Shown: in pieces, positions 7,342 to 33,377 of the stretch
Position numbering within the stretch: the stretch's first letter is position 1
Layout: every line of letters starts with the position of its first letter
Source: a virus
Reading direction: 5' to 3' (one strand)
IMG/VR virus record: IMGVR_UViG_3300037258_000282
Coordinates: 32,001 to 96,000 of that record
DNA: 64,000 nucleotides
Notes under the pieces: generated by a model
Told to the model about the DNA's origin: nothing
What the model saw: only the letters and a program-made list of their open reading frames with translations
Database searches by the model: none
Program-made: the position numbers and the translations under genes

Positions 7342-8682
7342 TTAGACTGACCCACCGCCGGTATTGGCCACCGCCGAGATTATGTTGAGCAAGTCAGAAT
7401 AGAGTATCGCGTTGGCCGTGGAGTCCGCCGAGAAGGCGCCCTGCTTGCCGATAGTTCCAAGAGCTACGAGAGTCTCATAGTGGACTCTGTTAGCTCTTCC
7501 TCCTGCCACGAGAGTGAACACGTTCGCTCCATTCGAGGCGAAGAAAGATAGAGGCGCGGCGATGTTACCGTGAACTAGAGTTATTCCACTTCCTAGGTTG
7601 AACGTTGGAGTGAAGGTGTCGACCAATGGACCAACTCCATTTCCGTGGGCACCTGAAGCGTTGGAATATACTAGAGTATACGCGGAGGCGACGTTCGTGA
7701 ACCGAGATCCGGCATTCACTACTCCAAAGGATAGGTTTCCTCCGGTGGAGTTGGTCGTGACGTTGACGACCGCCGGAATTCCAAGCGTCGGCCACGTCAG
7801 CGGATATATGGTGATCAGATCTCCGTTGGTATAGGAGGTGACGTTAGTAGTTCCATTAGACCACGTCATTCCCTTCACGTTTCCATAGATCGCTCCGTTG
7901 GCATTGGCCGTGAAGCCGTATCCAGCGTTGCTTATGGTAAACTGAAGGTTTCCTCCAGTAGAGTTAGTCGTAAATGAGATGACGGCGTTGGCCTCGCCTC
8001 CCACGGCAGTTCCCTGCAAGTTGGCGACAGGCGACGCGATGATGAGCAGATTTGAGTTGCTCCATCCAGTAGCAGTTCCCGTGAGATATACGGAGTTGAC
8101 TACAGACGTCTGTGCTACGGCCGGCGTATTGTTACTAAATCCGAAGCCAGGATTAGCTATCGCGAATGATACCGGACCGCCGATCGAGTTTGTGGTCACT
8201 AGAGCGAGACCATTCGCTCCCGACGGGGATATTAAAGTCAATCCCATATTGTTGATATATGGACCAGGAGTGTTCGCGTTAGTGTTTACGTATGCGCCGT
8301 GAACTATGTTGACCTCGGCGATTGGTCCAGTACCGGCTCGACGAATATTCCAACCAGTGTGAGTTATGAGAGACCCAGAGCCACCGGTATTCGACGCTAC
8401 GGTCGAGTGAAGATTCGCAGAATGAGCGGTATTGACGCCGATGATTCCAACGGCGATTCCAGATAGGAACGCGCCTGGAGTAGTATTCTCGAACATCTGA
8501 ACGTCGACGTTAGCTCGCGAACCCGCGTACGTGTTTCCGAGGTGGGCGTTGGCGCCGTGTGGGGCTCCATTAGGAGCCCCCTTGACATAGACGTATGTCC
8601 CTAGCGGCGCGCCAATCGTAGTTTCTATCGTAGTCGTGCTGTTGGCCACGACGGAATTTGAGTTTAATCCCCACCCGCTCAA
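7342..8682 (-). CDS. putative virion structural protein, N/G/S/T-rich
   Basis: Repeated TTNS(T/I)GG motif; late promoter TATAAATA upstream; TTG start with AAGGAG SD. Confidence 0.6.
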   Translation of the reverse strand: MSGWGLNSNSVVANSTTTIETTIGAPLGTYVYVKGAPNGAPHGANAHLGNTYAGSRANVDVQMFENTTPGAFLSGIAVGIIGVNTAHSANLHSTVASNTGGSGSLITHTGWNIRRAGTGPIAEVNIVHGAYVNTNANTPGPYINNMGLTLISPSGANGLALVTTNSIGGPVSFAIANPGFGFSNNTPAVAQTSVVNSVYLTGTATGWSNSNLLIIASPVANLQGTAVGGEANAVISFTTNSTGGNLQFTISNAGYGFTANANGAIYGNVKGMTWSNGTTNVTSYTNGDLITIYPLTWPTLGIPAVVNVTTNSTGGNLSFGVVNAGSRFTNVASAYTLVYSNASGAHGNGVGPLVDTFTPTFNLGSGITLVHGNIAAPLSFFASNGANVFTLVAGGRANRVHYETLVALGTIGKQGAFSADSTANAILYSDLLNIISAVANTGGGSV

Positions 8683-8711
8683 GTGCGTCTCCTTAGGTTG
8701 TGATTTCTTAT

Positions 8712-8719
8712 TATTTATA
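8712..8719 (-). promoter_or_regulatory. T4-type late promoter
   Basis: TATAAATA 30 nt upstream of the 8682 start. Confidence 0.7.
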
Positions 8720-8747
8720 CCATTTGGAGACTTAACTTAGAACTCAG

Positions 8748-8939
8748 TCACTGAGTCATCATGTCGAGCACGTACGCAGACTGCTTGGATATCTTCCTCG
8801 CGACTCCATCAACTATGAGTATGTGGTGATCCTTATCGTACCTGAGATCGTGATAGTCGTGGATAACGCGCATAGCGGCCTCGTGATTACCGGCCGCTAT
8901 GATCTTCTTGATTAGATCTACCTTCTTTTCGTCAGTCAA
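8748..8939 (-). CDS. hypothetical protein
   Basis: ORF track; overlaps the upstream stop. Confidence 0.5.
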   Translation of the reverse strand: MTDEKKVDLIKKIIAAGNHEAAMRVIHDYHDLRYDKDHHILIVDGVARKISKQSAYVLDMMTQ

Positions 8940-9186
8940 CGCTCTCGACTATCCTTCCAAACTCTCGCTCGATCGACTCCTTGTCGTCTGGCTTTTCAGC
9001 TTCCATGTAGCTTGAGTAATACTCACCCACCACGTCAGTTGGAATTCCATGAGTTTTTCCCGTATCTGGATGAATCAAATGAATAAACCCAAATTCGTCA
9101 GTCTTACCCATCTTAACCTGAGCCATAAGGCTTGGAGTATCTGGCCTCTCTAGGTCGAGAGATCCCATGTACTGTCTCTTTACCAT
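8932..9186 (-). CDS. hypothetical protein
   Basis: ORF track; operon context. Confidence 0.5.
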   Translation of the reverse strand: MVKRQYMGSLDLERPDTPSLMAQVKMGKTDEFGFIHLIHPDTGKTHGIPTDVVGEYYSSYMEAEKPDDKESIEREFGRIVESVD

Positions 9187-9207
9187 TCACCACACCGTAA
9201 GTTAAAC

Positions 9208-10683
9208 TCACTTACTCTTCTTAGAGTCCGTCAGCGCGTTTGTTGGAACACCATCTACTATCTTGTCGCCTCGACCCTTTCCGACCTGAGGACCATCGTC
9301 GTCTCGCTGAGAGCCTGGCTTCGCCTCGACCAAACCAGCCATACCGGCGATCTCGTCCCTATAGAACGTTACTCCATCTATCACTAGATTGATCTCCTCC
9401 GTGATATTCTGACAGTCTGATAGAACTCCCGTGACGTACGTCGAGATATCTTCTTTCTCTACCGCCTGATTCGCGCTCTCCTTGAATGTCTTTTTCACCT
9501 TAGACTTATAGTCTCTTACGCTGGTCTTACCACCGGCGTCGGCTTTCGAGTATGGAACCATCTCCCTGGCCTTATTCCTGGCGTCTCTGTGATCTGACGC
9601 GATGACGGCATGAACGAATCCATCTTCTGGTATGTTCATCCAGGACTTCTTGTGATGAACTATGAATATGCGACCAGAATCAGCAGAAGCTTCCTCGGTG
9701 GCCTTGACCTTAGTCTGCCCGGAATATTTCGCGAGAGCCGACTTAATTCCCTTCTCTCGCCCAGCGATGGACTTCTTAGCGTGATCGGCGGCCCACTTAT
9801 CCTGAGGGTCCTCTGATCCCTTTAGAGCCGCCGCGGTCTTCTTCTTCGCCGCGACGTCATCCCTCGCGCCACCTATGTAGCTATCAAGTTTACCATGAGA
9901 TATCTCATCTACCTGCTCAACTTCTTCCTTCACGGCCGACTTCTTCTTATCGTCGACACTCTTTGGCTCCATCTTTCCAGACGCCACGTAGTTAGCGAAT
10001 CGAGCGTTCGAGTTATGCTTAGCGTATCTCGCCAGCGTCTGTCTCGTCAGCTCTATCAGAACGTCCGACCTCGACATTCCCTCGAACATCCTCTTGGTGG
10101 TATCGGCGATCTCTCCCTGGAGCTTCTTCGCGCGCGACTCATTCTCCTTTCCCTCGAGATCGTCAGTATTGAGATCTACAGTAGCCTCGTCAAACTCACC
10201 GCGCGTGATATTCTTATCAGAAGTGCCGTTCTTGTTCTTTCTTGCGGCATCCGCGGTGATATCAGCCTTGAGCTTCTTGTCGGCCTTAGTCTTGGCGGCC
10301 TCGTCTACGATTTTATCATTTGTCTTTGGATCGGTGTCGACCTTCGTCTTGCCGGTGGTCTTCAGTATCTTACCCTTCTTACCGTCCTCTATGTCGGCGA
10401 CTTTCTTGTCGTTCTTAACCATAGAATCGTCAGAGTCTTTATCATCGGAGCTCTTGGAATCGTCGTCATTCTTTCCAAATGGAGGCTTCTTGGAGTCCTT
10501 ATCCTTAGAGTCCTTAGAGTCCTTATCCTTGGAGCTCTTATCTTCCTTTCCAAATGAAGGCTTCTTGGAGTCCTTATCCTTGGAATCCTTACCCGACTCG
10601 TCCTTCTTTTCAAACTTCTCGCTTAGAACTCCACTCACGGCGGCAATTAGGCTTTGCGGCAGGCCAAACATAGACTTAGGCAT
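9208..10683 (-). CDS. highly charged putative internal head/core protein
   Basis: KDS low-complexity repeats; E(I/L)(S/T)xxxLxxY modules shared with 53041..54876; GATAAATA late-type promoter upstream. Confidence 0.55.
   Translation of the reverse strand: MPKSMFGLPQSLIAAVSGVLSEKFEKKDESGKDSKDKDSKKPSFGKEDKSSKDKDSKDSKDKDSKKPPFGKNDDDSKSSDDKDSDDSMVKNDKKVADIEDGKKGKILKTTGKTKVDTDPKTNDKIVDEAAKTKADKKLKADITADAARKNKNGTSDKNITRGEFDEATVDLNTDDLEGKENESRAKKLQGEIADTTKRMFEGMSRSDVLIELTRQTLARYAKHNSNARFANYVASGKMEPKSVDDKKKSAVKEEVEQVDEISHGKLDSYIGGARDDVAAKKKTAAALKGSEDPQDKWAADHAKKSIAGREKGIKSALAKYSGQTKVKATEEASADSGRIFIVHHKKSWMNIPEDGFVHAVIASDHRDARNKAREMVPYSKADAGGKTSVRDYKSKVKKTFKESANQAVEKEDISTYVTGVLSDCQNITEEINLVIDGVTFYRDEIAGMAGLVEAKPGSQRDDDGPQVGKGRGDKIVDGVPTNALTDSKKSK
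10480..10590. repeat. imperfect coding tandem repeat (KDSKDKDSKK)
   Basis: gagtccttatcctt unit repeated. Confidence 0.7.
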
Positions 10684-10729
10684 ATGATCTTCCTTCTGAG
10701 ACGTCGGGTTAGTGATGACTCAGTATTTA

Positions 10730-11314
10730 TCACTCCTTTGCTTTAATGGACTTTAGTCGCCGCCGGACGTCCCTATACATCTCAGCTACCTTACTTTCTA
10801 TCATCGCCTCCGGCGCGCCCTGACGAAAAGTGTCAAAGTCATTCCTATCGGCGGCCTCTCTCATCATCGTGCCAGATATAATGTCTCTGCCTGGAATAAG
10901 AATTGAGTCTATAAACTTAAAGTCATAGAATCCGTGAGGGTAGGCGTTCCCATTATACTTCTTCAGTAATTCGTAGTACTCGTCGCGTCGATCTTCGCCA
11001 CTGACTACTACGAAGATCCTGCACCCATCTGCATATATCTTAGATGCGTGGTGAAGTATAGATGGAGAGTCGTGCGACGACTCTGAGATCTTAACTTGGT
11101 CTCCAAACGTAAGGCGACCGTACTTAAGTTTCTGCTTCACCGTCAGGGGGTTTTTCTTAGAACTCACCGCGTGAGACACTATGATGTTGTACTTGCCGCC
11201 GTTTTTTTCGGCTAGTGACTTCGCCTTAAGTACTCCAAGCTCGTGACCCTTAGTCCAAGGTTGTGCCCTGCCCCACCATAGGGTCTGATACTCACGCCCT
11301 ACGTCAGTCATCAA
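10730..11314 (-). CDS. cytidyltransferase-like (HxGH-type) nucleotidyltransferase
   Basis: GRAQPWTKGH, KNPL, ISGTMMR motifs. Confidence 0.7.
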   Translation of the reverse strand: MMTDVGREYQTLWWGRAQPWTKGHELGVLKAKSLAEKNGGKYNIIVSHAVSSKKNPLTVKQKLKYGRLTFGDQVKISESSHDSPSILHHASKIYADGCRIFVVVSGEDRRDEYYELLKKYNGNAYPHGFYDFKFIDSILIPGRDIISGTMMREAADRNDFDTFRQGAPEAMIESKVAEMYRDVRRRLKSIKAKE

Positions 11315-12498
11315 TCTCTCTTGGAATGCTTGGCAAAATTCATCTTAGAAAACTCCGAGCGATCGACTAACTTGACGCTGTCTCCGCGTCTATTAGTCGC
11401 CACGACTCCCTCTGGGGCAGTCGGCTTACCGTCGATACTTCTCGCGTACCCACCACCGCGGCCCAGTACTTTAACTAGTACGTTCTTGGCTTTCTGAAGA
11501 TGGCCGTGTAACTTCAACATACTATCAAAGTGTTTGGAATTGTCAACGGCACGCTGAATCTTACTCGCGTATCCCTGAGCCTTCCTCTGCCTTCCAGACT
11601 CCGTCTTAAGTTTTTCTACCGCGCTCTTTGACTTATCTGTGAGAAAATTGATGTATCCATTCAGTGACGGCTCTTTTCCATTTCTGATAGAGTCGTTGAC
11701 GTGGGCTTCGATAGAAGATCCGTGATCCCTCAGAATATCAGGTGTCTCGGGCTTCATCTTCCCATATTCTCCGGTAGCTAGAGCCCGGTGAAATAGGAAC
11801 TCTCTCTGCTCGTCAGGCGAGTAGCTAGATGGATTTATCTTAATATTATTAGACATCCGGTGTACGTCAGGATGATCTTGAAACTTCGAGTGGTCCGACT
11901 CCTCCATGGGTTCGGCCCTCATCTGATGCGGCTCTCCCCTTCCCACGTACTTAGTGTGAATGGCGATGCCGAATTTAGATCTACCAACCTTCTTTCCCTC
12001 GGCGGAATCTTTGGGTACAGAATAAGTTATGAGGTTGGGAGTAAATGAAGTGTTGGCGCCATCGACTATCCTATCAAGTGAGGAGTGCATCACGTCTCCC
12101 TGGTACACTCCTCCCGTAGGTGGCATTATCTTAGGTAAGTGTCTGAGAGCAAACTTCAGCTTGTCAGTCAGACCGCTACCCGGGCCGTGATTGTTATGAA
12201 TGTCGGCGTTGGTATAGTTGATCTTAGGCTTCGAGTTAAACGCTGACTTCGTTGCTACGAAGAACTGACCGGACCTAGGATGAGTGCCAAATACTAGAGA
12301 AGGAGACCCATCCAGCTTCTCAGAGACGTGAATCTTACCATCATGTCCGAGAAGCTTTCTATGAACTCCATCGAGAAACTCAGCGGCTAGCCCCACTCCA
12401 GAGTGGCCACCGCGAATAGGAAGATCTTCTAGATGAGTGAGGTGCTTGAGCGGCGCGGCGACTCGCTCCTCAGTAACAAATTCTTGAAAACTCTTCAT
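11311..12498 (-). CDS. conserved T4-like protein (DUF6267-like) with a ligase-type KxDG motif
   Basis: HLTHLED, SEKLDGSPS, YQGD, PEGVV, VKLVDR. Confidence 0.6.
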   Translation of the reverse strand: MKSFQEFVTEERVAAPLKHLTHLEDLPIRGGHSGVGLAAEFLDGVHRKLLGHDGKIHVSEKLDGSPSLVFGTHPRSGQFFVATKSAFNSKPKINYTNADIHNNHGPGSGLTDKLKFALRHLPKIMPPTGGVYQGDVMHSSLDRIVDGANTSFTPNLITYSVPKDSAEGKKVGRSKFGIAIHTKYVGRGEPHQMRAEPMEESDHSKFQDHPDVHRMSNNIKINPSSYSPDEQREFLFHRALATGEYGKMKPETPDILRDHGSSIEAHVNDSIRNGKEPSLNGYINFLTDKSKSAVEKLKTESGRQRKAQGYASKIQRAVDNSKHFDSMLKLHGHLQKAKNVLVKVLGRGGGYARSIDGKPTAPEGVVATNRRGDSVKLVDRSEFSKMNFAKHSKRD

Positions 12499-13451
12499 TT
12501 TTTTCTCAAAGCCTTGTTTATGTCTATGGAAGTATTCCTCTTCGTCGCCATATATACACCGACCCTTCCTCCCGTGTCAACATTATTTGCGCCGAGGCGG
12601 TGCTCGCACATTATCTTACATTCCACCGCCTCCGACATATAGTTGTTTCTCGCGTTAGAGTAGATGTTGTCTGCCGTGAATTTGTATATTCCCGAGCTTA
12701 TCTTCTTCAGTCCCACGCTTGACCCGTGAAGTACGGCCTGAACGTTGTCGATACCATACTTCTTTCCATGATCCATCCCGTACATAGACTTATGTATCAG
12801 ATCTCTATCTGGTGAATAATCACTATTTAGTCCAAAGTGATATGCCGGATATCCAGGTGGAAGCCACTTCTGTCCAGGAATAGTCATATCTCTTTTTATG
12901 ATGAACTTACTCACGGCGATCCTCATTCGCTCGAAGTGCATCTTATCGCACACTCCGGCAAACTGCTGAAACGTCTTTGCCTTGAGAGATAAGAAGATCA
13001 CGTGCTTCATCCCATTGACTAAGATGACGTCACACTTATGTCCGGCCACAGCGTCCGTTACTCCAGTTACCGAGAACTTCTTTCTCCCGATTATGATCGC
13101 TATAGGTCGCCCACCATTTTCCGCGACGGCCTCGGCCACCGCTACTCCGAGGGCGGCTTTCTGACTCTTCTCGATGGCCATGACGTTGTCTCTATTCTTT
13201 GGAAGCTTTGGCTTATCCAGCATAGAGATGCGCTCCGTAACCACGATCTCCCCATAGGAGAGGTCTGCGATGAAGTATCTATCGCCGTCGAGTCTGACAT
13301 TAGATACTCGAACTTGGGACTTGTATGGTATGACTGACCTTTTTCCCTTAAAGAGATAGGTCGTCATATTCATCAGGTCCTCAGTAAAGTACTTAGTCGC
13401 GTGGCTCACCGCGCGCGGACTCTCACTGTTAGCGTATATGGTTCCCATCAA
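12495..13451 (-). CDS. hypothetical protein, possible PD-(D/E)xK nuclease
   Basis: KCDVIL...FLSLK pattern. Confidence 0.4.
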   Translation of the reverse strand: MMGTIYANSESPRAVSHATKYFTEDLMNMTTYLFKGKRSVIPYKSQVRVSNVRLDGDRYFIADLSYGEIVVTERISMLDKPKLPKNRDNVMAIEKSQKAALGVAVAEAVAENGGRPIAIIIGRKKFSVTGVTDAVAGHKCDVILVNGMKHVIFLSLKAKTFQQFAGVCDKMHFERMRIAVSKFIIKRDMTIPGQKWLPPGYPAYHFGLNSDYSPDRDLIHKSMYGMDHGKKYGIDNVQAVLHGSSVGLKKISSGIYKFTADNIYSNARNNYMSEAVECKIMCEHRLGANNVDTGGRVGVYMATKRNTSIDINKALRKK

Positions 13452-13484
13452 CTTATCTCCATGATATGAATCGTGATTATCTGA

Positions 13485-13513
13485 TTGACACCCACATAAG
13501 TAAGTGATAGATT
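13485..13513 (+). promoter_or_regulatory. sigma70-like promoter on the plus strand
   Basis: TTGACA-17-TAGATT. Confidence 0.6.
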
Positions 13514-13643
13514 TGCCTTCGTTGAAGGCGGCTTCTACTCACGAGACGATGCCATGGAGGCGCCTGTTGCGCTACGTACCAACCGTGATACAGCACGCAA
13601 CTACTATGAGATGCTGGATACATTCCGAATGGAGGCATGATAT

Positions 13644-13844
13644 ATGCGCCTCGGCAGCATTCAGCGTGATGTTGTGGCCTACCTCACTCGGTGCAGCGAG
13701 AAGCGCGGTGTGATTCGCTCTACAACTAAAGCTGATGAATTTCAGGGCTATGATCTTGAACAGGTAGAGCGCGCTCTTACTGGCCTCATGCGTCGTGGCA
13801 TCGTTCGACGCGAGGGCATTTGGTATGTTTTGGCGAAGTGGTAG
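13644..13844 (+). CDS. small winged-HTH-like protein
   Basis: GGAGG SD; LEQVERALTGLMRRGIVRREG. Confidence 0.5.
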   Translation: MRLGSIQRDVVAYLTRCSEKRGVIRSTTKADEFQGYDLEQVERALTGLMRRGIVRREGIWYVLAKW

Positions 13845-13920
13845 ATGCCAACACCAGTCTTCGATCGGGAGGACTTATCGTTCCCTCGGCCTACATCGAA
13901 GCGATACACTAGAGTCGACT

Positions 13921-14526
13921 CTAGTGTATCGTCGCGCTCTTCATCTCATACCTATTTCCCTGCGCGTCGAACATGAACCTATCGATGATTCTAATTCTAT
14001 TAGCATAGTATGAGATGTATACATCGTGCAGCGCCGTACCCATGTTGCTGCCACCGTTATATCTCAGAGAGTCATACCCTAATCTCTTAAGTAACTCTCT
14101 GGCTCTCGCAGTCTGAGTCATTCCCTGGGATATTCCCTTGAATACCTGCTCTCCAGTGAGAGTCAGCGCTCCATCTGACAGCTGTCCTAGAACCAGGTAC
14201 TTATCTGCCCCGGAAGATAGGAGTCCAGCCCCGCGCGCGAAGCTCTCCATCTCACTTCTAGTTGAGAACATCTTCTTAATATTGGAGGAGGGAATATAGT
14301 TGTCGACGTCGAAGCACTTGTCTATCAGAAGATCTACCTTATACACTATGCGATCTCCGCCAGATTTTCTGGCCATGGATCTCGCGTAAGTATAGGCGAC
14401 GTCGGCAGTGTTCGTGAAGTAGGCCACTCCACCCCCGTAATAGTCATTTATTACGCGAGCCTTACCCTGATCGAACTGAGAGAACGATGAGTTAGTTCCA
14501 TGAAATAGAGTCTCAGTCTTACTCAC
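13921..14526 (-). CDS. ADP-ribosyltransferase-like protein (ART-PolyVal type)
   Basis: LFHGT...F..F...G.G.AYFT....A..YA and LGYDSL motifs. Confidence 0.6.
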   Translation of the reverse strand: MSKTETLFHGTNSSFSQFDQGKARVINDYYGGGVAYFTNTADVAYTYARSMARKSGGDRIVYKVDLLIDKCFDVDNYIPSSNIKKMFSTRSEMESFARGAGLLSSGADKYLVLGQLSDGALTLTGEQVFKGISQGMTQTARARELLKRLGYDSLRYNGGSNMGTALHDVYISYYANRIRIIDRFMFDAQGNRYEMKSATIH

Positions 14527-14717
14527 GCGCGCTTTAACTCTCTAAGCATGAAAGTCGGAGTGAACCCCTGAAACCCAGTAGAATTACTGATCTTCACTCC
14601 AACTCTCGCTCCACTGTAAGTATCAAACTTACGTAGAACTTGAGAGGTTAGGTTCTCAAAGATGTCGTAGAACTTCTTATTTCCATCTACTCTCTTACGG
14701 ATGATATAGCTTCCCAT
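14523..14717 (-). CDS. hypothetical protein
   Basis: 64 aa; GFQGFTPTFM motif. Confidence 0.55.
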   Translation of the reverse strand: MGSYIIRKRVDGNKKFYDIFENLTSQVLRKFDTYSGARVGVKISNSTGFQGFTPTFMLRELKRA

Positions 14718-14718
14718 G

Positions 14719-14961
14719 TTAAGTATCCATATCTCTCTTAAAGTAAAACTCTTTGGTCTGACAATTCAAGACGATGTTCATCACGTAGTTATAACCAGGT
14801 GCAAGCTTAGGGGACGCCACCTCGCACAGATAGTAGTCCATATCTCCAATCCAAGAAGCCTTAAGTATTCTAAGATCTTCTCTTGGATAAGTGAGTAGGA
14901 ATATCAAGAAGTCTCGAGTTACCTCGACCGTACATCTACCCCAGTTGTCCTCTACTCTCAT
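14719..14961 (-). CDS. hypothetical protein
   Basis: ORF track; operon context. Confidence 0.5.
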   Translation of the reverse strand: MRVEDNWGRCTVEVTRDFLIFLLTYPREDLRILKASWIGDMDYYLCEVASPKLAPGYNYVMNIVLNCQTKEFYFKRDMDT

Positions 14962-14971
14962 GATGCTCTTC

Positions 14972-15586
14972 CTAATCTATGTAGAAGCGCCCGTTTATAT
15001 CGGCGCCATTTCGACCACGCTGATAGATGTAGTTAGTAAATGTCTCAACATCTCTCTGCGCCATCGTGGAATAGCCCTTTGTTCCATACTTTAAGATACG
15101 CCTGAGAGTAGCATTTGGGTAAGTGACTGTATTTAGACTTATGTTCTTGCGCAGAACATCACGAATCGCGGCTCTCGACGTGATAAGCCTACCATCAGAT
15201 ATGGCCGACATCCCGGCGACTATATCGAATGAGGAAAGCAGAGCCTCAGCGGTGTCAAAGTTGTGTTCCTCGACGAACTGTACCTTAGCGTCCTTGAACT
15301 TAAAGTTAGATAACTTTCCTTCCGGGCACTTGAACGTGCACTTAGCTCCGGCCTCTATTAAAACTTCTCGTGCCTTATCGGCGGCTACTTTATGCTTGAA
15401 GAATATGTCGTAGTCTACGACTACCTCGCTCTCGTCGAACAGCTTTCTAAGCGCCCCTCCCGCGAGGATCACTCCATAATTGAACTGAGAGAATATCTGA
15501 GAGAGCTCAATAAGCGTCGGCCATCCCCTCTTCTCAAGTATCACTCGAGTAGAATTTACATTAAACGTGATAAAGTTCATTGACAT
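14972..15586 (-). CDS. pol-beta superfamily nucleotidyltransferase (CCA/poly(A) polymerase head-like)
   Basis: LAGGALR...DYDIFF, SFDI motifs. Confidence 0.65.
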   Translation of the reverse strand: MSMNFITFNVNSTRVILEKRGWPTLIELSQIFSQFNYGVILAGGALRKLFDESEVVVDYDIFFKHKVAADKAREVLIEAGAKCTFKCPEGKLSNFKFKDAKVQFVEEHNFDTAEALLSSFDIVAGMSAISDGRLITSRAAIRDVLRKNISLNTVTYPNATLRRILKYGTKGYSTMAQRDVETFTNYIYQRGRNGADINGRFYID

Positions 15587-15725
15587 AGGTCCATGTATCT
15601 ACTGGCAAGCTCAACGATGATCTTGAGCTTTTCTGGTTCTATAACGCAGGAATCTCCCGAGTACATAGACTCATCGACGAGAGTCCTAGCCCAGGCCAAT
15701 ATCTCCTCGATCTCTTCGTCACCAA

Positions 15726-17117
15726 TCACTTAAACTCGCTGAATTTGTCTTTAAGCTTACCTTTATGTCGCTCGGCGTCGTGAGTTCCAAATGTAGTCTT
15801 ATCCATGACCGGCGAATCGTCTTCCTGACCAGATTGATCTATATTGTACATTCGCATCTTCGCTCGATCAGTGCCGATGAAGAACTTCTTCTTTCTATTC
15901 GGATCGGAGTACCTATTCTTCAACTGCTTTGCCATCAACTGATCTATCTCAGTCAACTCGTCAGTCGCGATCAAGGCCATCATGAAGTCAGCGGTCGCGG
16001 GAAGACCAAATGAGTCCGAAGTATTCTCAAGACCAAAGTCTGAGTCCGTATATCCAGTCCTGTTTACCTGAGTGGCCGTCACGATCGGGACGCCGAACTC
16101 CACGGCTAGACCTCTGATCTCTTCGGCTATGGACTTCACGTACGTATACGTGTTGATCGACCCACTGAGCTTCAGTCTAGACGAAGCGCAGATATTAAGA
16201 TAGTCGATATAGATGATCGACGGAGAGAAGTTCTTCTTAGTCTTAAGCTCATTTAAGAGATATCGAAAGTGAGAGCTTCCGGCCGCGGCGGTGGGATACT
16301 CCTTGATTATGAGCTTTCCCTTGACTTTCTCTCGGAGTCTAGCGATCTTTCGATCGTAGACGTCCTTAGAAGTCTTCCTCAGTTCAGAGAGTGGAATATC
16401 CAAGAGATTAGCGTCGATCCTCTCGGCGATCCTCTCCTCAGCCATCTCCATAGTGATGTAGAGTACGTCGAACCCGCGAGATAAGTTATAGGCGGCCTGG
16501 TGGCACATCAGCATGGACTTTCCAACGCCGACTCCAGCCATGTATACGTTCAGAGTCTTGACCGAGAACCCACCCTCAGTGATCTCGTTCATTATATCAA
16601 TGTCAAACGGGACCTTCTTCTCTCTGGCGTGGTAGAACTCGTATCTCTTCTCTGCGTCGTCTATGAAGTCATGACCGATGGAAGTATCAAACGACACGGC
16701 GAGAGCGTCAGATAATATCTTAGGTATGGCGCCCTTATCAGACTTCGCGTCCTTACCGTCGATTATCTGGATCGACTGCATGATCGCGTTGTAGACCGCG
16801 CGCTCTTGGCAAAATTTTTCAGTGGAGTCTACGAGCCACTCTAAGTCTGGTCTCCTTTCTGGCTCCTTGGAGATCTCCTCAACTATAGAGACCGCCTCCT
16901 TGAATATCTGCTCCGTAAGTGAGACATTCGTTAGGTCTATCGCGACAGCTTCGATAGATGGTATCTTATTGTACTTTATGAAGTATGATGTTATTACCTC
17001 ATATACTACTCTCTCTGCCTTATTGGAGAAGTACTCTGAATTTAGAAATGGGATTATCCTGCGTGAGTACTCTTGGTTAGAGACCAACCCTGAAAGTATT
17101 ACCTTCTCTACTGCCAA
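15726..17117 (-). CDS. 41: replicative DNA helicase gp41
   Basis: AGVGVGKS Walker A, YITMEMAEERIAERID, IYIDYLNI, TATQVNR, SFGLPATAD, KQLKNRY. Confidence 0.95.
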   Translation of the reverse strand: MAVEKVILSGLVSNQEYSRRIIPFLNSEYFSNKAERVVYEVITSYFIKYNKIPSIEAVAIDLTNVSLTEQIFKEAVSIVEEISKEPERRPDLEWLVDSTEKFCQERAVYNAIMQSIQIIDGKDAKSDKGAIPKILSDALAVSFDTSIGHDFIDDAEKRYEFYHAREKKVPFDIDIMNEITEGGFSVKTLNVYMAGVGVGKSMLMCHQAAYNLSRGFDVLYITMEMAEERIAERIDANLLDIPLSELRKTSKDVYDRKIARLREKVKGKLIIKEYPTAAAGSSHFRYLLNELKTKKNFSPSIIYIDYLNICASSRLKLSGSINTYTYVKSIAEEIRGLAVEFGVPIVTATQVNRTGYTDSDFGLENTSDSFGLPATADFMMALIATDELTEIDQLMAKQLKNRYSDPNRKKKFFIGTDRAKMRMYNIDQSGQEDDSPVMDKTTFGTHDAERHKGKLKDKFSEFK

Positions 17118-20270: not shown

Positions 20271-20502
20271 ATGTCATCTCCGTATGCTCTCTAGCGAACT
20301 CAATGAAATCTCTAACATATCTCTCTATCCAATCAAGTGGAAGAGTCCTGAGGTTCGCGTCCTTAGTAGGTATGCCATACGATCTACCCATCAGTCCAGT
20401 AGACCGTCCGTACACCGCGCCCTTGTACTTTTTAGCGTAGAGCGCGGCGCCCTTTCCGTGCCTTCCAGCCAGATTGGAGCCGAAGACGAAGATACTCTCC
20501 AT
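20146..20502 (-). CDS. A1S_2505-like phage protein
   Basis: IFVFGSNLAGRHGKGAA, SYGIPTK, VTAIGCGLAG. Confidence 0.7.
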   Translation of the reverse strand: MESIFVFGSNLAGRHGKGAALYAKKYKGAVYGRSTGLMGRSYGIPTKDANLRTLPLDWIERYVRDFIEFAREHTEMTFEVTAIGCGLAGYTPTDIAHFFRGSPPNVILPESFKPIAGA

Positions 20503-21611
20503 CAGAAGAACCTCTCAAGAGAACTCTTCTTCTCGAGAGTCCAACCGATCACGTCGACTATAGACTTAAGTGGCTCAAGAAACGCCTTATCAAACTGAAG
20601 GTTTCGATCTATGAAGTCCTCAAGTCCAAATTCAACCGGCATCCTCTCAGCTATCGATATCACGTTCTCACCTATTGGGTTTGGAAGTCTAAGGTACGCG
20701 AACTTCACCTTATCGCCATCCGATATGGGCTGAATAGTCTTGAGCCCATGCTCCCGACATAGGTGATTGAAGAGTAGAGCTCCCCTGACGGCAATTGGAG
20801 TCTTATCTCCGTATATCCTCTTATTGTCTGAGTACTTATCCATTCCGTTCACCGACCGGGGAAACGCTATGTCTTCAAACTTCAGTGCGTTGAACTCATC
20901 TCTGAACTTGTCGATAAACGCATATAGCTCTTCCTGACTTCCATGTAATATTATTCCTATGGCCTTCTTAATATTGTCTCGACAGACGTGTGGAGTTGAA
21001 GAGCGCACGGCCTCTATTCCAGACATCTTGATCTCAGGAGGATCGCACTTAACTCCCTCGATGTCCAGGGCTGAGAGAATATACATCTTTTTAGCTTTCC
21101 AGATAGATCTTCCAGCTATGGTTTCTCTCTTCATGTGCATCTTCTGCTGATATGCGCCCATTCTATGTTGAAGTTCGGCGTATATCTTTTCGAGCTTCGG
21201 GGCGATCTTCTCGCTTACGAACCTATCTAGGGCCGCGGTTATCTCGTACTTGTCTTTATCTCGACCTATCAACTCCACGATAGAGTCTAATTCAAGATAG
21301 ATGGAATCAGTATCGGATGCCACGACATAGTCTATTCCAGAAGTCTTGAGTAGAACGTTGATATACTGGTTGAGCTTCTTTTCTGTCCACCTGATCGTAA
21401 GCTGACCTGAAGAAGTCACTGCCTCAGCGTGGTTGAAGTCAAACCAGCGAAAATATTGATTCGCGAGCTAGAGCGCGCCGTAGAACGAGTTGAGAGATGT
21501 CTTCATAGATAACTGAAGATTGTGATACTTCGAGATCTCATTTTTCAACTGTTCACGACGCGCTAAAAGCTCCTCCTTTCTCAAGGCGCTAACCTTTTGC
21601 ACTTCCGTCAT
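20502..21611 (-). CDS. 43B: DNA polymerase gp43 C-terminal subunit, with an in-frame TAG at 21468..21470
   Basis: GGAGGTG SD and ATG at 21611; KTSLNSFYGAL*LANQYFRWF (motif B); SDTDSIY (motif C); C-terminal SSLERFF. Confidence 0.85.
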
Positions 21612-21636
21612 CTATCACCTCCCTCTTAAGTATAGA

Positions 21637-23088
21637 TCAAAGTTTAACTAACTCAGCGTTTACCACCGCCAGCTCCTTCTTGGCGTTGAGCATTAGCTTC
21701 TTATACTTTACTCGTCCATCGTATAGCTTCTGCATGATCTCTGGAAGAAAACCAGACTTGTCCTTCCTATACGCGCAACCATTCGCGGCAAACGAGAAGC
21801 TCTTCCTATCATACTCTGATAGTGGATCTTCGCCCGTAAGCAGTTCATCTATCTTCGGAAAATTATGATACCTAGTTGAGAACATCTCCGGTGAGATATT
21901 GTACTCCATAATTAAATGTGGGTAGAGTGAGTCCAAATCGAGAGACACGACCCACCTAGACTCACCTATCTTCGGCTCCTTGACGTATCCTCCCATGAGG
22001 GAGTCAAACATCGTAGACTTCTTCACCGGAGGAATCACTATACCCTGGTTCATCAAGTGAGAGTGTATGATCATATCAGACGGGCGAAGGGTGGTGAGAG
22101 TATCTATATAGTTGACTTTAGCCAAGTACGCGTAGGCTACGACCTGCTCCAAAAACTTAAGCTTCTCCTCCAGCTTCTCGACTAGAATGCAGTCCCTCAC
22201 GTTGTAGTCTATATACTTCGTAAAGTCTGCTCGGTATATATCCATGAGGTTTCCATACTCAGAGTAGTCCAACTTCTGCTCGTTGAGCTCGACCTTGGAG
22301 ATATAGTCTAGCTTATACGACTCAGAGTTTCCAAACTTAAACTTTCTATAGAGCTGATAGTAGTCCAGAACACTGACTCCAACTATCACGTAGCTGTGAT
22401 TGGTCTTATTGTGGAACGCTACCTCATTTATATCCAAGATCTTCCACGGTGAGAGTCTAAGAGTCCACGACTCACCTATAACCGCTCGTATCCTATTGAT
22501 AAGATATGGAATGTCGAAGAACTCTATGTTCCATCCAGTCACTATATCTGGGGATATAGACTCCCAGCACCTCACTACCATCTGGAGAAGCTCTATCTCA
22601 TCGTGGCACTTCACGTACTCGATCGATGGATCAGTTCCGAGATACTCCTCGCACCCAAATACCATAGACTTACCGCGAAACCTCAGAGTCACTGCCGTGA
22701 TCTCTTGGTCCGCTCGAACTATCGATGGAAATCCTGAGTCAAACTTACACTCCAAGTCTAGAGTGATAGTTCTTATCATAGAGAAGTCGTGCTCTATTAA
22801 GTCTGGAAACTTATCGTATATGTAGAGGTATTGAAAGTTATCCAGCCCGTAGATCTCAAAGTTATCGACGTCTTTGTACTTATCTACGAACGCCTTAGCG
22901 TCCTTGATGCTCGAAAAGTTCATCTTCCCAAACTTACGACCATCTAAAGATCTATACTCTCCCGTTGGAGATGGAACGAACAGGTAGGGCTCGTACTCTA
23001 CGCATTCCTTGACGCGCAGTCCCTTGTCGTATCCGCGGTAAAATATCTTGTTACCGCGCTTAAGTACAGAAGTGTAGAATTCTACCAC
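21637..23088 (-). CDS. 43A: DNA polymerase gp43 N-terminal subunit (exonuclease, motif A, first finger helix)
   Basis: LDLEC, TGWNIEFFDIPY, YNVRDC, GGYVKEP, SLDLDSLYP. Confidence 0.92.
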   Translation of the reverse strand: MVEFYTSVLKRGNKIFYRGYDKGLRVKECVEYEPYLFVPSPTGEYRSLDGRKFGKMNFSSIKDAKAFVDKYKDVDNFEIYGLDNFQYLYIYDKFPDLIEHDFSMIRTITLDLECKFDSGFPSIVRADQEITAVTLRFRGKSMVFGCEEYLGTDPSIEYVKCHDEIELLQMVVRCWESISPDIVTGWNIEFFDIPYLINRIRAVIGESWTLRLSPWKILDINEVAFHNKTNHSYVIVGVSVLDYYQLYRKFKFGNSESYKLDYISKVELNEQKLDYSEYGNLMDIYRADFTKYIDYNVRDCILVEKLEEKLKFLEQVVAYAYLAKVNYIDTLTTLRPSDMIIHSHLMNQGIVIPPVKKSTMFDSLMGGYVKEPKIGESRWVVSLDLDSLYPHLIMEYNISPEMFSTRYHNFPKIDELLTGEDPLSEYDRKSFSFAANGCAYRKDKSGFLPEIMQKLYDGRVKYKKLMLNAKKELAVVNAELVKL

Positions 23089-25669: not shown

Positions 25670-26617
25670 CTAAAGCGGCGTGCACTCGACCATAACTTCC
25701 GTGATAAATGCCAAGAGATTGACCTCCTGGTCTGCGACGAAGGCCGATTGATACTGATACTTTGAGAGAGTGAGTATAAGCATAGGGATGGACGCCTGGG
25801 TGAAGTAAGTGGAGCACTGCTCGTAGAACTTCCTGTATATTCCCACGACGTCGTTATTCATGTTCTGGATCACCCACTGCCTGGCGCTGGAGTAATCCTT
25901 GTTCTTGATGTATATAATCAGCTCTGAGAATACCTCGTCCGTCATGCGAGCGAGTATTCCCGTGTCGATCGTGCCAGACGCTGAGTAAGTCTGGAGCTCA
26001 TTTAGCACTCTTCTCCAGTCTGGAAAATGCTTGGTGATGAGCTCTGCGACTATCGGCTTTTCAAACTTCACTCCCTCGTTGGATAGGATCGCGCAGGTCC
26101 TATGAAAGAAGGCCGACGCCATCTTTGCCTTCTCTTTGGAGTCGAAAGTAAACTCTACGAGAGAGCACCTCGAGTGAAGAGCTGGAATGATCTTATTCTT
26201 ATAGTTGCAGGTAAACATGAACCCGCAATTTCCAGAATACTCCTCCATAAAGTTTCGGAGAGCGGGCTGCGTTGAATTTGGATTGAGAAAGTCGGCCTCG
26301 TCGAGTATGACGTACTTCCTACCCCCGGTAAGTGACACTGAGGAAGCAAAGTTCGCGATCTGATTTCTCAGAGTGTCGATGTTTCCGTCGAGAGATCCAT
26401 TTATCACCATATAGTCTATGCCGAGCTGCTCGCACATAGCTCGCGCCGTGGTGGTCTTTCCTACTCCAGATGTACCCGCGAGGATCAGGTTCGGAATGGC
26501 CCCATTCTTGATGAACTCTCTAAACGACACTTTTATGCGATCTGGGAGTATGGTATCATCGATAGTCTGAGGTCTATACTTTTCTACCCAGAGAAATTCA
26601 TCAGGATTCGATTGCAT
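25670..26617 (-). CDS. 44: clamp loader large subunit gp44
   Basis: LWVEKYRP, GTSGVGKTT, ILDEAD, SRC. Confidence 0.95.
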   Translation of the reverse strand: MQSNPDEFLWVEKYRPQTIDDTILPDRIKVSFREFIKNGAIPNLILAGTSGVGKTTTARAMCEQLGIDYMVINGSLDGNIDTLRNQIANFASSVSLTGGRKYVILDEADFLNPNSTQPALRNFMEEYSGNCGFMFTCNYKNKIIPALHSRCSLVEFTFDSKEKAKMASAFFHRTCAILSNEGVKFEKPIVAELITKHFPDWRRVLNELQTYSASGTIDTGILARMTDEVFSELIIYIKNKDYSSARQWVIQNMNNDVVGIYRKFYEQCSTYFTQASIPMLILTLSKYQYQSAFVADQEVNLLAFITEVMVECTPL

Positions 26618-30707: not shown

Positions 30708-31906
30708 AAAAATATCTCCAAGTTGGATTTTATATCATCCATATCATCAAGTGACTTACTCGCGTTATGCTGGAACACGTAACTTGAGTTGATCATGTTA
30801 CGACGACCCTCTAGATAAGCCCTCACTTCTAGAGCCATATCTCTCGCGGTACTCACCGGAACATTTTGACAGATATGATTCACTGACTTTTCTGGGTCGA
30901 GCAGTTCAAAATCCAATGGTAAGTTCATTATGGTCATCGCCTCGCGATAGCTGATGTACCTATCTTGGTGGGGATGAGTCAGCATAGTTGGATAGTGTCC
31001 CACGAAGGCGCCTATGTGCCCCTTAGGTACGATGGTTCCTCGCCTCATTATGGAACCACCGGCCTGGAGTTTCTCATGCCTCCGAAGGCACCTGTCGCGC
31101 TCCTTGGGATATCCATTAGATCCCATCCACTCGGCTATCTCTGGATACGCGTGAGTCTTCTCTATGAATGAGACGATATCGTTGTTTCGTATTTTTGCGG
31201 ATGGAACTAGGTTGAAGAACTCTAGATGAGATATACCACCGTACATGTGCTCCAGAACAAACCGATAGTATGGATCTCTAGATGGGATCTTCCCATTGAT
31301 AGGGGTTGTCTGAAAGTTTGATCTACCGGCGGAAAGTATGGTATCCTCGATCTTCTCATGCTCTCGACTGAAGTACGACAGCTCCGGGCAGCGATCGCCC
31401 TTCCAAAAGAAGAAGAAAGCTCGAGAGCGAACTTGCGGCATCCCATGTAGTATAGACTTGGTCGAGTATACGGACATCGCGTAGCCGGCATCGTGAGCTA
31501 TCGCCCGCATACGCTCTCTGATGTCTTTACCGATATTTCCCGCGAATCCCGGCGCGTTCTCTCCCCAGAATACCTCTGGACTCATCTCAGTCAAGACATA
31601 CTGAGTCGTCTTAATCAACCACTTGTTGTTTTGATTGCTAGTTCCATATCCATGAGACAACTGAGATAAACCGGCGCATGGACACACGCTTCCAACGACG
31701 TCGAGCTTACTCGGCTTACCCCCGTCATCTAGAACGACGTATGGTACTTTAGCTCCCAGATTTTTCTCATAGTAGTTGATGAGATGCCTGTCGTTACCAT
31801 AAAATGGCTTGAACGATATAAGCTCTTCGGATAGTCTTCCGAAAGCCATATCGGAGCCCAGCGTCAGCCCACCTATAAGAGGAATTATGGTGCCGTGCTT
31901 AATCAT
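30704..31906 (-). CDS. divergent DNA cytosine-C5 methyltransferase-like protein
   Basis: CPCAGLS (motif IV), GENAP (VI), PQVRSR (VIII), RYISYREA (IX), QNVP (X); atypical motif I PLIGG. Confidence 0.7.
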   Translation of the reverse strand: MIKHGTIIPLIGGLTLGSDMAFGRLSEELISFKPFYGNDRHLINYYEKNLGAKVPYVVLDDGGKPSKLDVVGSVCPCAGLSQLSHGYGTSNQNNKWLIKTTQYVLTEMSPEVFWGENAPGFAGNIGKDIRERMRAIAHDAGYAMSVYSTKSILHGMPQVRSRAFFFFWKGDRCPELSYFSREHEKIEDTILSAGRSNFQTTPINGKIPSRDPYYRFVLEHMYGGISHLEFFNLVPSAKIRNNDIVSFIEKTHAYPEIAEWMGSNGYPKERDRCLRRHEKLQAGGSIMRRGTIVPKGHIGAFVGHYPTMLTHPHQDRYISYREAMTIMNLPLDFELLDPEKSVNHICQNVPVSTARDMALEVRAYLEGRRNMINSSYVFQHNASKSLDDMDDIKSNLEIFL

Positions 31907-33377
31907 TAAAAAATGTACTCAAATCTGCCCTATCCATCACTTTGGAAAGATCCATTACTGTAGTTCTCTTCTTTCCCTCAAAGACCGAAAAGATCTTATC
32001 ACTAAACTGCTTAAAGCCTACGGCCGGAACCTGACCATTTGATATTAAGCTCTCCCATTTAGCGGTCACTAAGCCACCGGCCGTCTGACCATAAACGTGG
32101 TCTAGAAAGTCCCTGACGCCATTAAACTTACCTGGGTCCTTACCGATCCTGACGATATCATCGAGCATCGTCGGAAGATTGATGTTGGAGTTGAACTCAC
32201 TCTTTATGAATGCTAATCCCGACTCCCTATATTTATCCTGCTCTGATGTATTATCGGCGATATCTACCAACTTTTCTGCAGTAGCGCGAAGATCACTCTT
32301 ATCAGACCAAATAGCAAGGTGGTCTATAGAGTCGTATGTCACTCCAGAAGATGACATATTATGCGCTCCATAGTGGGAGTCAAATACTGGAATCGACCCA
32401 CACGCTATCATTTCAATTTGAGTATTCTCCATGCGATCACCATAGTTCTCTGGCTGCTTTGGAAGCCTAAAGAAAGACGCGCAAAATAGAGATTCCGCTA
32501 TATATCTCATTCCATTGGAATGAGTATACGGGCCAAATACCGGAACTTTGGGTGGATTAAAGTCGTAGTCTCCATCAAACTTTAAGGAATAGACCGTATT
32601 ATGGTGTCCCCAGTCTTCTGGAGGAGGGCCGCCTTTATAGGACGCTATGGGGCCGCCGACGATGTCAGCCTTGGCTCCAATAGACTTCTCTATGCCATGA
32701 ATCAAGCACTGGAACTTAGGGTCTATCTCGAATAAGTGATCTGCTAGGTCTAGCACTCTTCTAGGATCTTTCATCGTCGACCATCGCCCGACGTACGTCA
32801 GCCTCTTAGCCTTATCAGCGAGCTTAACTGAGTCAAAATACTTTTCCTTGAGACCATCTACGTCGGTCCATATCTTAAACCTGCGGACGCGATCTCCCAC
32901 TACCTTTGACGGAAGTATCTTTGTGATATTTTGAGCGAACCAGACTTTCTCAGAGAAGACATATATCAAGTCTGACTCATTGAGGATGGGAAGCCACAGT
33001 GGAAAACAGTCGATGTTTGGCTGAATTATCTCGTTCATCACCGAGACGACTATAGCTTGGGACGCCGATAGTGATCGAACAAGATCGTAGTAGAACGAGA
33101 TTGAGGTAGACGCAAGATGCTTAAATGATGGTATCGACTGTAGGATGACGACATCATACTCTGTCAGTCTCTTCGCTACGGTCTTCATTTCTGATGGCTT
33201 GAATCTCACTACCGTACCGGAAAATGGATGTCCTGATGCCCTGGCGAACGAGCGCTCGACCAATTCAAACACGTCGAACTGCATTCCGACTCTGATAGCC
33301 CAATTTTGAAACTCAACGCCGGACCGCTGAACTCCACATCCATCAAACCCCTTTCCAAATACCATAGCAATCTTCAT
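31899..33377 (-). CDS. DNA alpha-glucosyltransferase homolog (T4 agt-like)
   Basis: MKIAMVFGKGFDGCGV, SFARASGH, YVGRWSTMKD, ENTQIEMIACGSIPVF match recalled T4 AGT motifs. Confidence 0.75.
   Translation of the reverse strand: MKIAMVFGKGFDGCGVQRSGVEFQNWAIRVGMQFDVFELVERSFARASGHPFSGTVVRFKPSEMKTVAKRLTEYDVVILQSIPSFKHLASTSISFYYDLVRSLSASQAIVVSVMNEIIQPNIDCFPLWLPILNESDLIYVFSEKVWFAQNITKILPSKVVGDRVRRFKIWTDVDGLKEKYFDSVKLADKAKRLTYVGRWSTMKDPRRVLDLADHLFEIDPKFQCLIHGIEKSIGAKADIVGGPIASYKGGPPPEDWGHHNTVYSLKFDGDYDFNPPKVPVFGPYTHSNGMRYIAESLFCASFFRLPKQPENYGDRMENTQIEMIACGSIPVFDSHYGAHNMSSSGVTYDSIDHLAIWSDKSDLRATAEKLVDIADNTSEQDKYRESGLAFIKSEFNSNINLPTMLDDIVRIGKDPGKFNGVRDFLDHVYGQTAGGLVTAKWESLISNGQVPAVGFKQFSDKIFSVFEGKKRTTVMDLSKVMDRADLSTFFND

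Follow-up and report, generated by a model that had tools for sequence, protein, structure and literature searches.

A probable stop-hop element at the end of a mobile cassette in the split DNA polymerase gene of T4-like phages

The DNA polymerase gene (gp43) of an uncultured T4-like phage, known from a 152.6-kb IMG/VR contig that is estimated to be 91% complete, raises the question of how an essential enzyme can be made from a reading frame that carries a TAG stop codon within polymerase motif B. The locus lies in the stretch of DNA analysed here (the window: 64,000 nucleotides, positions 32,001 to 96,000 of record IMGVR_UViG_3300037258_000282), and the stop stands there between two identical leucine codons, CTC TAG CTC. 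On the basis of in silico evidence only, we consider it highly probable that the TAG-CTC hexanucleotide is a minimal programmed translational bypass (“stop-hop”) element, carried within a mobile cassette.

The split polymerase gene and its internal stop

In the window, gp43 is divided into two adjacent open reading frames, gp43A and gp43B (Table 1), which jointly cover a full family B polymerase (PolB) and are separated in the fingers, and fused relatives align across the junction. The polymerase is diverged, with a best identity of 50–60% to any other and 58–60% at the amino acid level to its closest relative. The assignment of gp43A rests on its translation, on relatives with the same architecture that match the Pfam models DNA_pol_B_exo1 and DNA_pol_B, and on an identical protein in a second assembly. 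The first segment of gp43B consists of a cassette-derived N-terminal tail followed by the first half of motif B, KxxLNSFYGAL; the codons before the stop read AAC TCG TTC TAC GGC GCG CTC, and from the stop onwards the sequence continues as TAG CTC GCG AAT CAA TAT TTT CGC TGG. A re-reading of the locus bears out the description in the first-pass annotation, according to which gp43B begins at ATG 21611 behind a strong Shine–Dalgarno (SD) sequence, runs for 47 codons to CTC-TAG-CTC and then goes on in frame through the polymerase. The open frame past the TAG amounts to 321 codons when the landing CTC is counted, and the resumed segment shows full-length identity of 50–60% to T4-like and cyanophage gp43, with its catalytic motifs intact. 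All of about 150 insert-free relatives, drawn from two sets of viral contigs, keep the spacing NSxYGxx(G/A/S)NxxFR, and thus the window contains exactly two extra codons, so that removal of six nucleotides does restore the family spacing, as had been proposed.

Table 1. Features of the gp43 locus, in positions of the window
Feature	Position	Strand	Description
gp43A	21637..23088	minus	483 aa, stop TGA; exonuclease domain, start of polymerase domain, added C-terminal tail
Spacer gp43A/gp43B	21612..21636	minus	25 nt; gp43B ribosome-binding site GGAGG at 21622..21618
gp43B, first segment	21471..21611	minus	47 codons, from ATG 21611..21609 to take-off CTC 21473..21471
Internal SD-like AGAAAGGAGGA	21571..21581	minus	within the gp43B coding sequence, immediately 5' of the hairpin
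Hairpin, 5' arm	21549..21572	minus	N-terminal-tail codons; RNAalifold and single-sequence folds
Hairpin, 3' arm	21465..21487	minus	motif-B codons S-F-Y-G-A-L, UAG and landing codon
In-frame TAG	21468..21470	minus	within motif B; stop conserved in at least 12 lineages
Landing codon CTC	21465..21467	minus	identical to the take-off codon
gp43B, resumed segment	20502..21464	minus	320 codons, ANQYFRW... to motif C (DTDS), thumb and TGA 20504..20502

The genome appears to use TAG in the ordinary way. TAG terminates the gp44 clamp loader gene, a gp46-like SMC/Rad50 gene (at the end of the Pfam model) and a thyX-like gene in the window, in agreement with the earlier observation that it is a normal stop elsewhere, and across the genome in-frame TAG codons between long open segments are no commoner than TGA or TAA. 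A genome-wide reassignment of TAG is therefore ruled out. The same applies to a suppressor tRNA, since the search for a tRNA with a CUA anticodon, advised in the first-pass annotation, found none among the 26 tRNA genes of the genome. These tRNA genes lie mostly in one cluster (G000:C1 ~8200-16400, 31644-31918, 134385-135627 and 143446-143520, all beyond the window or on its edge) and include tRNA-Leu(UAG), tRNA-Leu(UAA) and tRNA-Gln(CUG); ARAGORN additionally reports a permuted tmRNA-like gene at 135312-135627 of the phage's own genome. As a separate observation, the gp44 gene (25670-26617, minus strand) ends in CTT TAG CTT, a further case of codon-stop-codon but at an ordinary gene end, with the next in-frame stop two codons further on; this is probably just a normal stop.

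Leucine codons around the stop in related cassettes

The same codon-stop-codon arrangement, which the first-pass annotation had suggested looking for in related gp43 genes, is present in 12 or more diverged lineages, which come from 15 or more samples, as CTN, a stop, 0–5 nt and a further CTN at codon 46–52 of a split gp43B. Two database proteins align “QL” with the “*L” of the window, and the Q of both corresponds to TAG at the DNA level (GCT CTT TAG CTC GGG and GCG CTT TAG CTC GGC). A pattern scan with TAG fixed and both flanks free returned six viral contigs, in each of which Leu codons flank the stop. The converse scan of viral and metagenome collections, with Leu-type flanks fixed and the middle codon free, returned further polymerases with TAG in every one; none of the polymerases found in these collections had a sense codon at the stop position, and sense-codon matches belonged to unrelated genes only. 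Gene callers fragment these polymerases or, as in the two database relatives, read the stop as Gln.

Of the members with an in-frame gap, the window reads CTC TAG CTC and others read CTT TAG CTC, CTT TAG CTA, CTT TAG CTT, CTA TAG CTG or CTT TGA CTT. Eleven variants have TAG as the stop, and one has TGA (L195, CTT TGA CTT). Take-off and landing codons are CTN in all 12 variants and never TTR, and the landing codon is always the first CTN past the stop; in insert-free relatives the equivalent residue is L, V, I or C, and TTR accounts for half of the Leu codons.

Searches with the upstream sequence of the cassette itself, rather than with the stop site, recovered further variants, two of which change the frame. 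One of these has a 4-nt gap (CTT TAG C CTT) and another an 8-nt gap (CTG TAG CGAAT CTG), the latter identical in contigs of three metagenomes, and a further variant has a 6-nt gap with two stops (CTT TAG TGA CTC). In all three variants a 323-codon polymerase frame opens directly behind the first CTN past the stop. Thus, a continuous frame with a single stop is a property of the window that fails in L190/L192/L193, L191 and L194, and in a series of gaps of 3, 4, 6 or 8 nt the window represents the smallest case, its gap of 3 nt corresponding to a hop of 6 nt.

The mobile cassette and its RNA elements

In three of the stop-bearing lineages (L082, L084 and L092), a block of high identity extends from about 940 nt upstream of the stop to the insert. 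These three differ at 2 positions over the 190 nt that precede the stop, as against 36–48 over the 194 nt downstream, the first of them at +8. Identity thus drops so sharply past the stop that the six inserted bases mark precisely the 3' terminus of an element that moves horizontally. The mobile-element scar that the first-pass annotation had listed as an alternative is in this respect half right, as the six bases are indeed the 3' terminus of a homing-endonuclease cassette, but they are a functional part of it and not a scar. The cassette comprises the gp43A tail, an endonuclease, the gp43B tail, a replaced segment of motif B and the insert. The endonuclease is a 231–234-aa open reading frame between gp43A and gp43B in five lineages (L084, L085, L092/L102, L191 and L195); Pfam models of SegE-type GIY-YIG nucleases match it, and it shares 36% identity with SegH across 92% of its length. 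Its gene is absent from the window, L082 and L190, and the window phage has lost it while keeping the tails, the hairpin and the insert. In L088 (6350-6650), a remnant that retains only the C-terminal DNA-binding part of the endonuclease overlaps the gp43B start, and it looks like an intermediate on the way from the full gene to its complete removal, as in the window.

The phylogeny of the downstream half-gene points in the same direction. A tree of the region downstream of the motif (317 columns) intersperses the stop-bearing genes with fused, stop-free polymerases; L082, for instance, is 88% identical to the fused L114 and only 77% to other stop-bearers, and monophyly of the stop-bearers is rejected (AU test, p = 7e-44, at a cost of 228 log-likelihood units). 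The hallmarks of a Seg-type homing cassette, namely an adjacent endonuclease gene, a patchy distribution and a sharp identity boundary, are therefore met in the relatives. A SegH-like GIY-YIG cassette bringing new C- and N-terminal tails would thus have split gp43 into gp43A and gp43B, and by analogy with MobA of T4 the insert probably breaks the endonuclease target in the conserved motif-B DNA without altering the protein; both cleavage and immunity are inferred, and the target is undetermined. No trace of the element was seen in the cultured phages of the collection, against which megablast returned nothing and protein and distant DNA searches found no cassette, tail or hairpin.

Further insertions and splits occur in the same gene. 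In L085 (4287-6771) and L191 (2303-4736), two related members, gp43A is itself in two open reading frames: one of about 320 aa encodes the exonuclease part and the other, of about 260 aa, the polymerase part. Some 700 nt lie between them, which in L085 contain an opposite-strand open reading frame; this interruption may be a second mobile insertion. L002, L041, L110, L161 and L162 have a split gp43B without the stop, with different N-terminal tails and no strong hairpin, and may represent other cassette families or cassettes from which the bypass has been lost.

At the RNA level, the cassette is predicted to form a hairpin of about 108 nt, in which codons of the N-terminal tail pair with motif-B codons through the stop and the landing codon. 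It is the minimum-energy fold in each of six sequences taken alone, with z-scores from -3.6 to -8.5 (-4.5 in the window), and in an alignment of 11 sequences 94.7% of the cells are paired, versus 25–49% when the partner is slid, with 4 compensatory pairs. The median fold energy of the same segment is -44 kcal/mol in stop-bearers, as compared with -24 in 114 fused genes and -22.5 in 6 split stop-free ones. The hairpin is thus both cassette-specific and covarying, and its function in stimulating bypass is inferred. A specific pairing of the internal GAGCU with UAG-CUC was considered and rejected, as the outer helix is disrupted in both L085 and L096, and for this reason conservation is claimed for the 13-bp core helix alone. 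The window could form the local CGCG/CGCG stem around the stop that had been put forward earlier, but relatives do not conserve this stem; what they conserve is the long-range hairpin.

The SD-like box preceding the hairpin, AGAAAGGAGGA, lies some 100 nt before the stop and is identical in all 11 aligned cassettes, synonymous sites included, while its flanks vary. Its AGA-AAG-GAG codon choice is expected at only 2–16% per gene from the genes' own codon usage. A role as the start signal of an internal or overlapping open reading frame was discarded, as no conserved start codon lies downstream of it or past the hairpin. The tail peptide, (L/W)RKE(E/D)L..(H/R)R.QL, is likewise conserved, in part at the nucleotide level; it has no similarity to KKYK, the nascent-peptide signal that in bypassing of the gene 60 type is placed about 30 residues from the P site. 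An AlphaFold2 model of gp43B with the TAG read as Gln has pLDDT values below 50 at residues 32–68 and is uninformative as to whether two extra residues would be tolerated.

Hopping, its alternatives and the known bypass systems

With gaps of 3, 4, 6 and 8 bases at the end of a nuclease cassette in its relatives, the most likely event at this locus is that ribosomes hop the gap. A ribosome at take-off would hold Leu codon 47 (CUC) in its P site and UAG (21468..21470) undecoded in its A site; instead of termination, the peptidyl-tRNA-Leu would unpair, the mRNA would slide by 6 nt and the tRNA would re-pair on the next CUC. Decoding would then restart at GCG, giving a canonical motif B, NSFYGAL-ANQYFRW, without extra residues. 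At this moment the 3' arm of the core helix would occupy positions -14 to -2, inside the ribosome, with its 5' partner free 76–99 nt upstream, and hence zippering of the helix at the mRNA exit could pull the mRNA forward: the 3' arm is proposed to re-pair on leaving the ribosome and so to help draw the mRNA along. As the arm is inside the ribosome at take-off, it is nevertheless important to stress that this role of the hairpin is a model and not an observation; contributions of the tail peptide and of the internal SD-like element to the hop are similarly inferred. Synthetic stop-hops in E. coli are said to have proved inefficient in Weiss's work of 1987, and an essential polymerase would therefore need strong stimulation. 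The occurrence of the hop in gp43B itself is an inference, for there is no protein, ribosome-profiling or reporter evidence, and the host and the efficiency are unknown.

The alternatives left by the first-pass annotation have to be weighed against the same body of evidence. That the allele is inactive or artefactual, through an assembly or sequencing error or through a recent 6-nt insertion that killed the polymerase of a defective genome, might be entertained as long as the feature is taken from a single metagenomic contig whose closest relative is so distant and whose raw reads have not been inspected. The Logan assembly of SRR11832711, however, contains a 41,950-bp contig with the same 483/47/305-aa open reading frames and spacing and with identical proteins. 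The stop is accordingly not the artefact of one assembler, even though both assemblies probably derive from one sample. Moreover, the feature recurs across the lineages and samples described above with intact downstream frames of 318–323 codons, dedicated and conserved RNA elements accompany it, and the catalytic motifs of gp43B are intact, so that a dead or erroneous allele is scarcely credible. Scarcely better placed, and very unlikely in our judgement, is a three-piece polymerase, in which the UAG would end a 47-residue peptide, a third polypeptide would start downstream and the parts would assemble non-covalently. Such an enzyme would extend a split that already exists, and the split gp43A/gp43B of Aeromonas phage 25 is active (PMC2988022); in addition, the folded hairpin would place the internal SD-like element beside the landing site. 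Yet no ATG, GTG or TTG is conserved past the stop, the GTG at 21419 of the window being ATT or ATC in relatives; the matched Leu codons at variable distances would remain unexplained, and motif B would be severed between YGAL and (G/A)N.

A more serious competitor, if still an improbable one, is site-specific readthrough, whereby a near-cognate tRNA such as the phage tRNA-Gln(CUG) would decode the stop and produce YGAL-Q-L-ANQ, perhaps as a means of keeping gp43B low. The gap is in frame in the window and in most members, the genome does carry this tRNA, a gene caller took the stop as Q in two relatives, and a C following UAG, as here, is a weak termination context. Readthrough is nevertheless difficult to reconcile with homologous cassettes whose 4- and 8-nt gaps change the frame, with a tandem TAG TGA in one of them, with TGA in another member and with the lack of any sense-codon version in the two collections. 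It would also give no reason for the additional Leu codon or for the strictness of the CTN/CTN match, it would break the motif-B spacing YGxx(G/A) that all of the insert-free relatives keep, and the conserved structure lies upstream, while the usual stimulators of readthrough lie downstream. For the 4-nt, 8-nt and two-stop variants readthrough is excluded, since only a Leu-to-Leu hop restores the polymerase there; for the window, where the gap is in frame, the exclusion rests on homology with the frame-changing cassettes. Two further mechanisms were set aside: A-to-I editing of the UAG, as at the amber/W site of HDV, cannot explain frame-changing gaps, and we know of no bacterial enzyme that would edit a paired A in such a context, whereas a +1 slip of the RF2 type fits the CUU-stop-C members only and would leave extra residues. 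When the variants are read together, a hop to the next cognate Leu codon explains the whole gap series, which neither readthrough, a suppressor tRNA nor a single fixed frameshift can do, and the 6-nt tRNA-Leu hop that the first-pass annotation had placed beside amber readthrough is hence the better supported of the two.

The closest precedent for such a hop is gene 60 of T4 with the endonuclease MobA (Huang 1988; Bonocora 2011; bioRxiv 10.1101/2022.08.31.505936). There, an endonuclease splits the gene and adds tails, bypass follows an N-terminal tail of 44–45 residues, and the 50-nt bypass insert keeps MobA from nicking the DNA of its own element (bioRxiv 10.1101/2022.08.31.505936). The gp43B cassette shares with it a free-standing homing endonuclease that divides an essential gene of replication and brings C- and N-terminal tails with it, an insert, here inferred to be untranslated, at the 3' end of the element some 46 codons into the downstream half-gene, a take-off codon directly followed by UAG with a matched landing codon, and an upstream mRNA structure whose 3' arm would be inside the ribosome at take-off; a role in pulling the mRNA has been proposed for the 5' stem-loop of gene 60 as well (PMC5009743; bioRxiv 10.1101/2024.12.09.627546). 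In both systems the endonuclease is often lost and the bypass kept, and the element has been acquired independently many times. The differences are equally clear: the gene is polB gp43 and not a topoisomerase gene, the nuclease is a GIY-YIG, SegH-like protein and not the HNH-type MobA, the gap measures 3–8 nt and not 50, and tRNA-Leu at CUN takes the place of tRNA-Gly at GGA. The gap contains no take-off stem-loop, and a single hairpin of about 108 nt follows the invariant AGAAAGGAGGA instead. Furthermore, the gene 60 bypass is proven at the bench and the gp43B element is not. No sequence similarity between the two cassettes was seen, and no Rfam family matches the hairpin or cassette element. 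Given that gene, nuclease, tRNA, gap and RNA structure all differ, the gp43B cassette would work like gene 60 but stands outside that family.

Other systems resemble single aspects of the locus. In the RF2 gene (prfB), with CUU UGA C, tRNA-Leu also sits on CUU before a poorly recognised stop in the A site, a context shared by L195 (CUU UGA C) and L191 (CUU UAG C); RF2, however, requires an SD sequence 3 nt upstream and shifts by +1, whereas the gp43B cassettes resume in frame 0, +1 or +2 according to the distance to the next CUN, and a slip of the RF2 type would not restore motif B in other members. The CUU UAG CUA of L085 is what we take to be the classic synthetic stop-hop construct of Weiss, Dunn, Atkins and Gesteland (1987), and in contrast to such artificial and inefficient sites the gp43B site is natural, conserved and set among dedicated RNA elements. 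The byp elements of Magnusiomyces capitatus are 27–55 nt long. These are short blocks in mitochondrial genes that are skipped between similar take-off and landing codons (PMC5009743) and, unlike the gp43B site, they are mostly context-independent and lack both a homing-endonuclease cassette and a stop in the A site. The same review, of 2016, treats synthetic stop-hops in E. coli as known and natural in-frame stop hopping as unknown, and remarks that shorter counterparts of bypass have “long been presumed” (PMC5009743). Finally, in the T4-related Aeromonas phages 25 and 44RR (Petrov 2006, 2010) PolB is likewise split in the fingers into two genes, gp43A and gp43B, and some phages have a GIY-YIG endonuclease of the Seg type, such as seg43(25), in between; as far as could be judged from the accessible part of that report, no in-frame stop or bypass is described (PMC2988022).

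Our literature search found no published bypass in a phage polymerase, and a 2022 preprint still called the gene 60 cassette unique (bioRxiv 10.1101/2022.08.31.505936). It is likely, if somewhat less certain than the hop element in the window itself, that these loci form the first family of natural stop-hop, or very short bypass, elements, with a gap of 3–8 nt in motif-B DNA that probably destroys the cassette's own cleavage site and with an RNA device of its own, made up of the hairpin and the internal SD-like box, independent of gene 60 and convergent on it. In practical terms, annotation is affected, since gene callers split such polymerases or call the stop Gln. Efficient programmed bypassing has for decades had essentially one example in the bacterial world, namely gene 60 of T4 with its homologues. 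Another cassette family, independent of it, would offer a natural mutational series, in gap, stop and take-off and landing codons, for the study of peptidyl-tRNA release and landing, and it would support a general rule whereby homing endonucleases shield their own copy by means of an insert that breaks the conserved target and is skipped by the ribosome.
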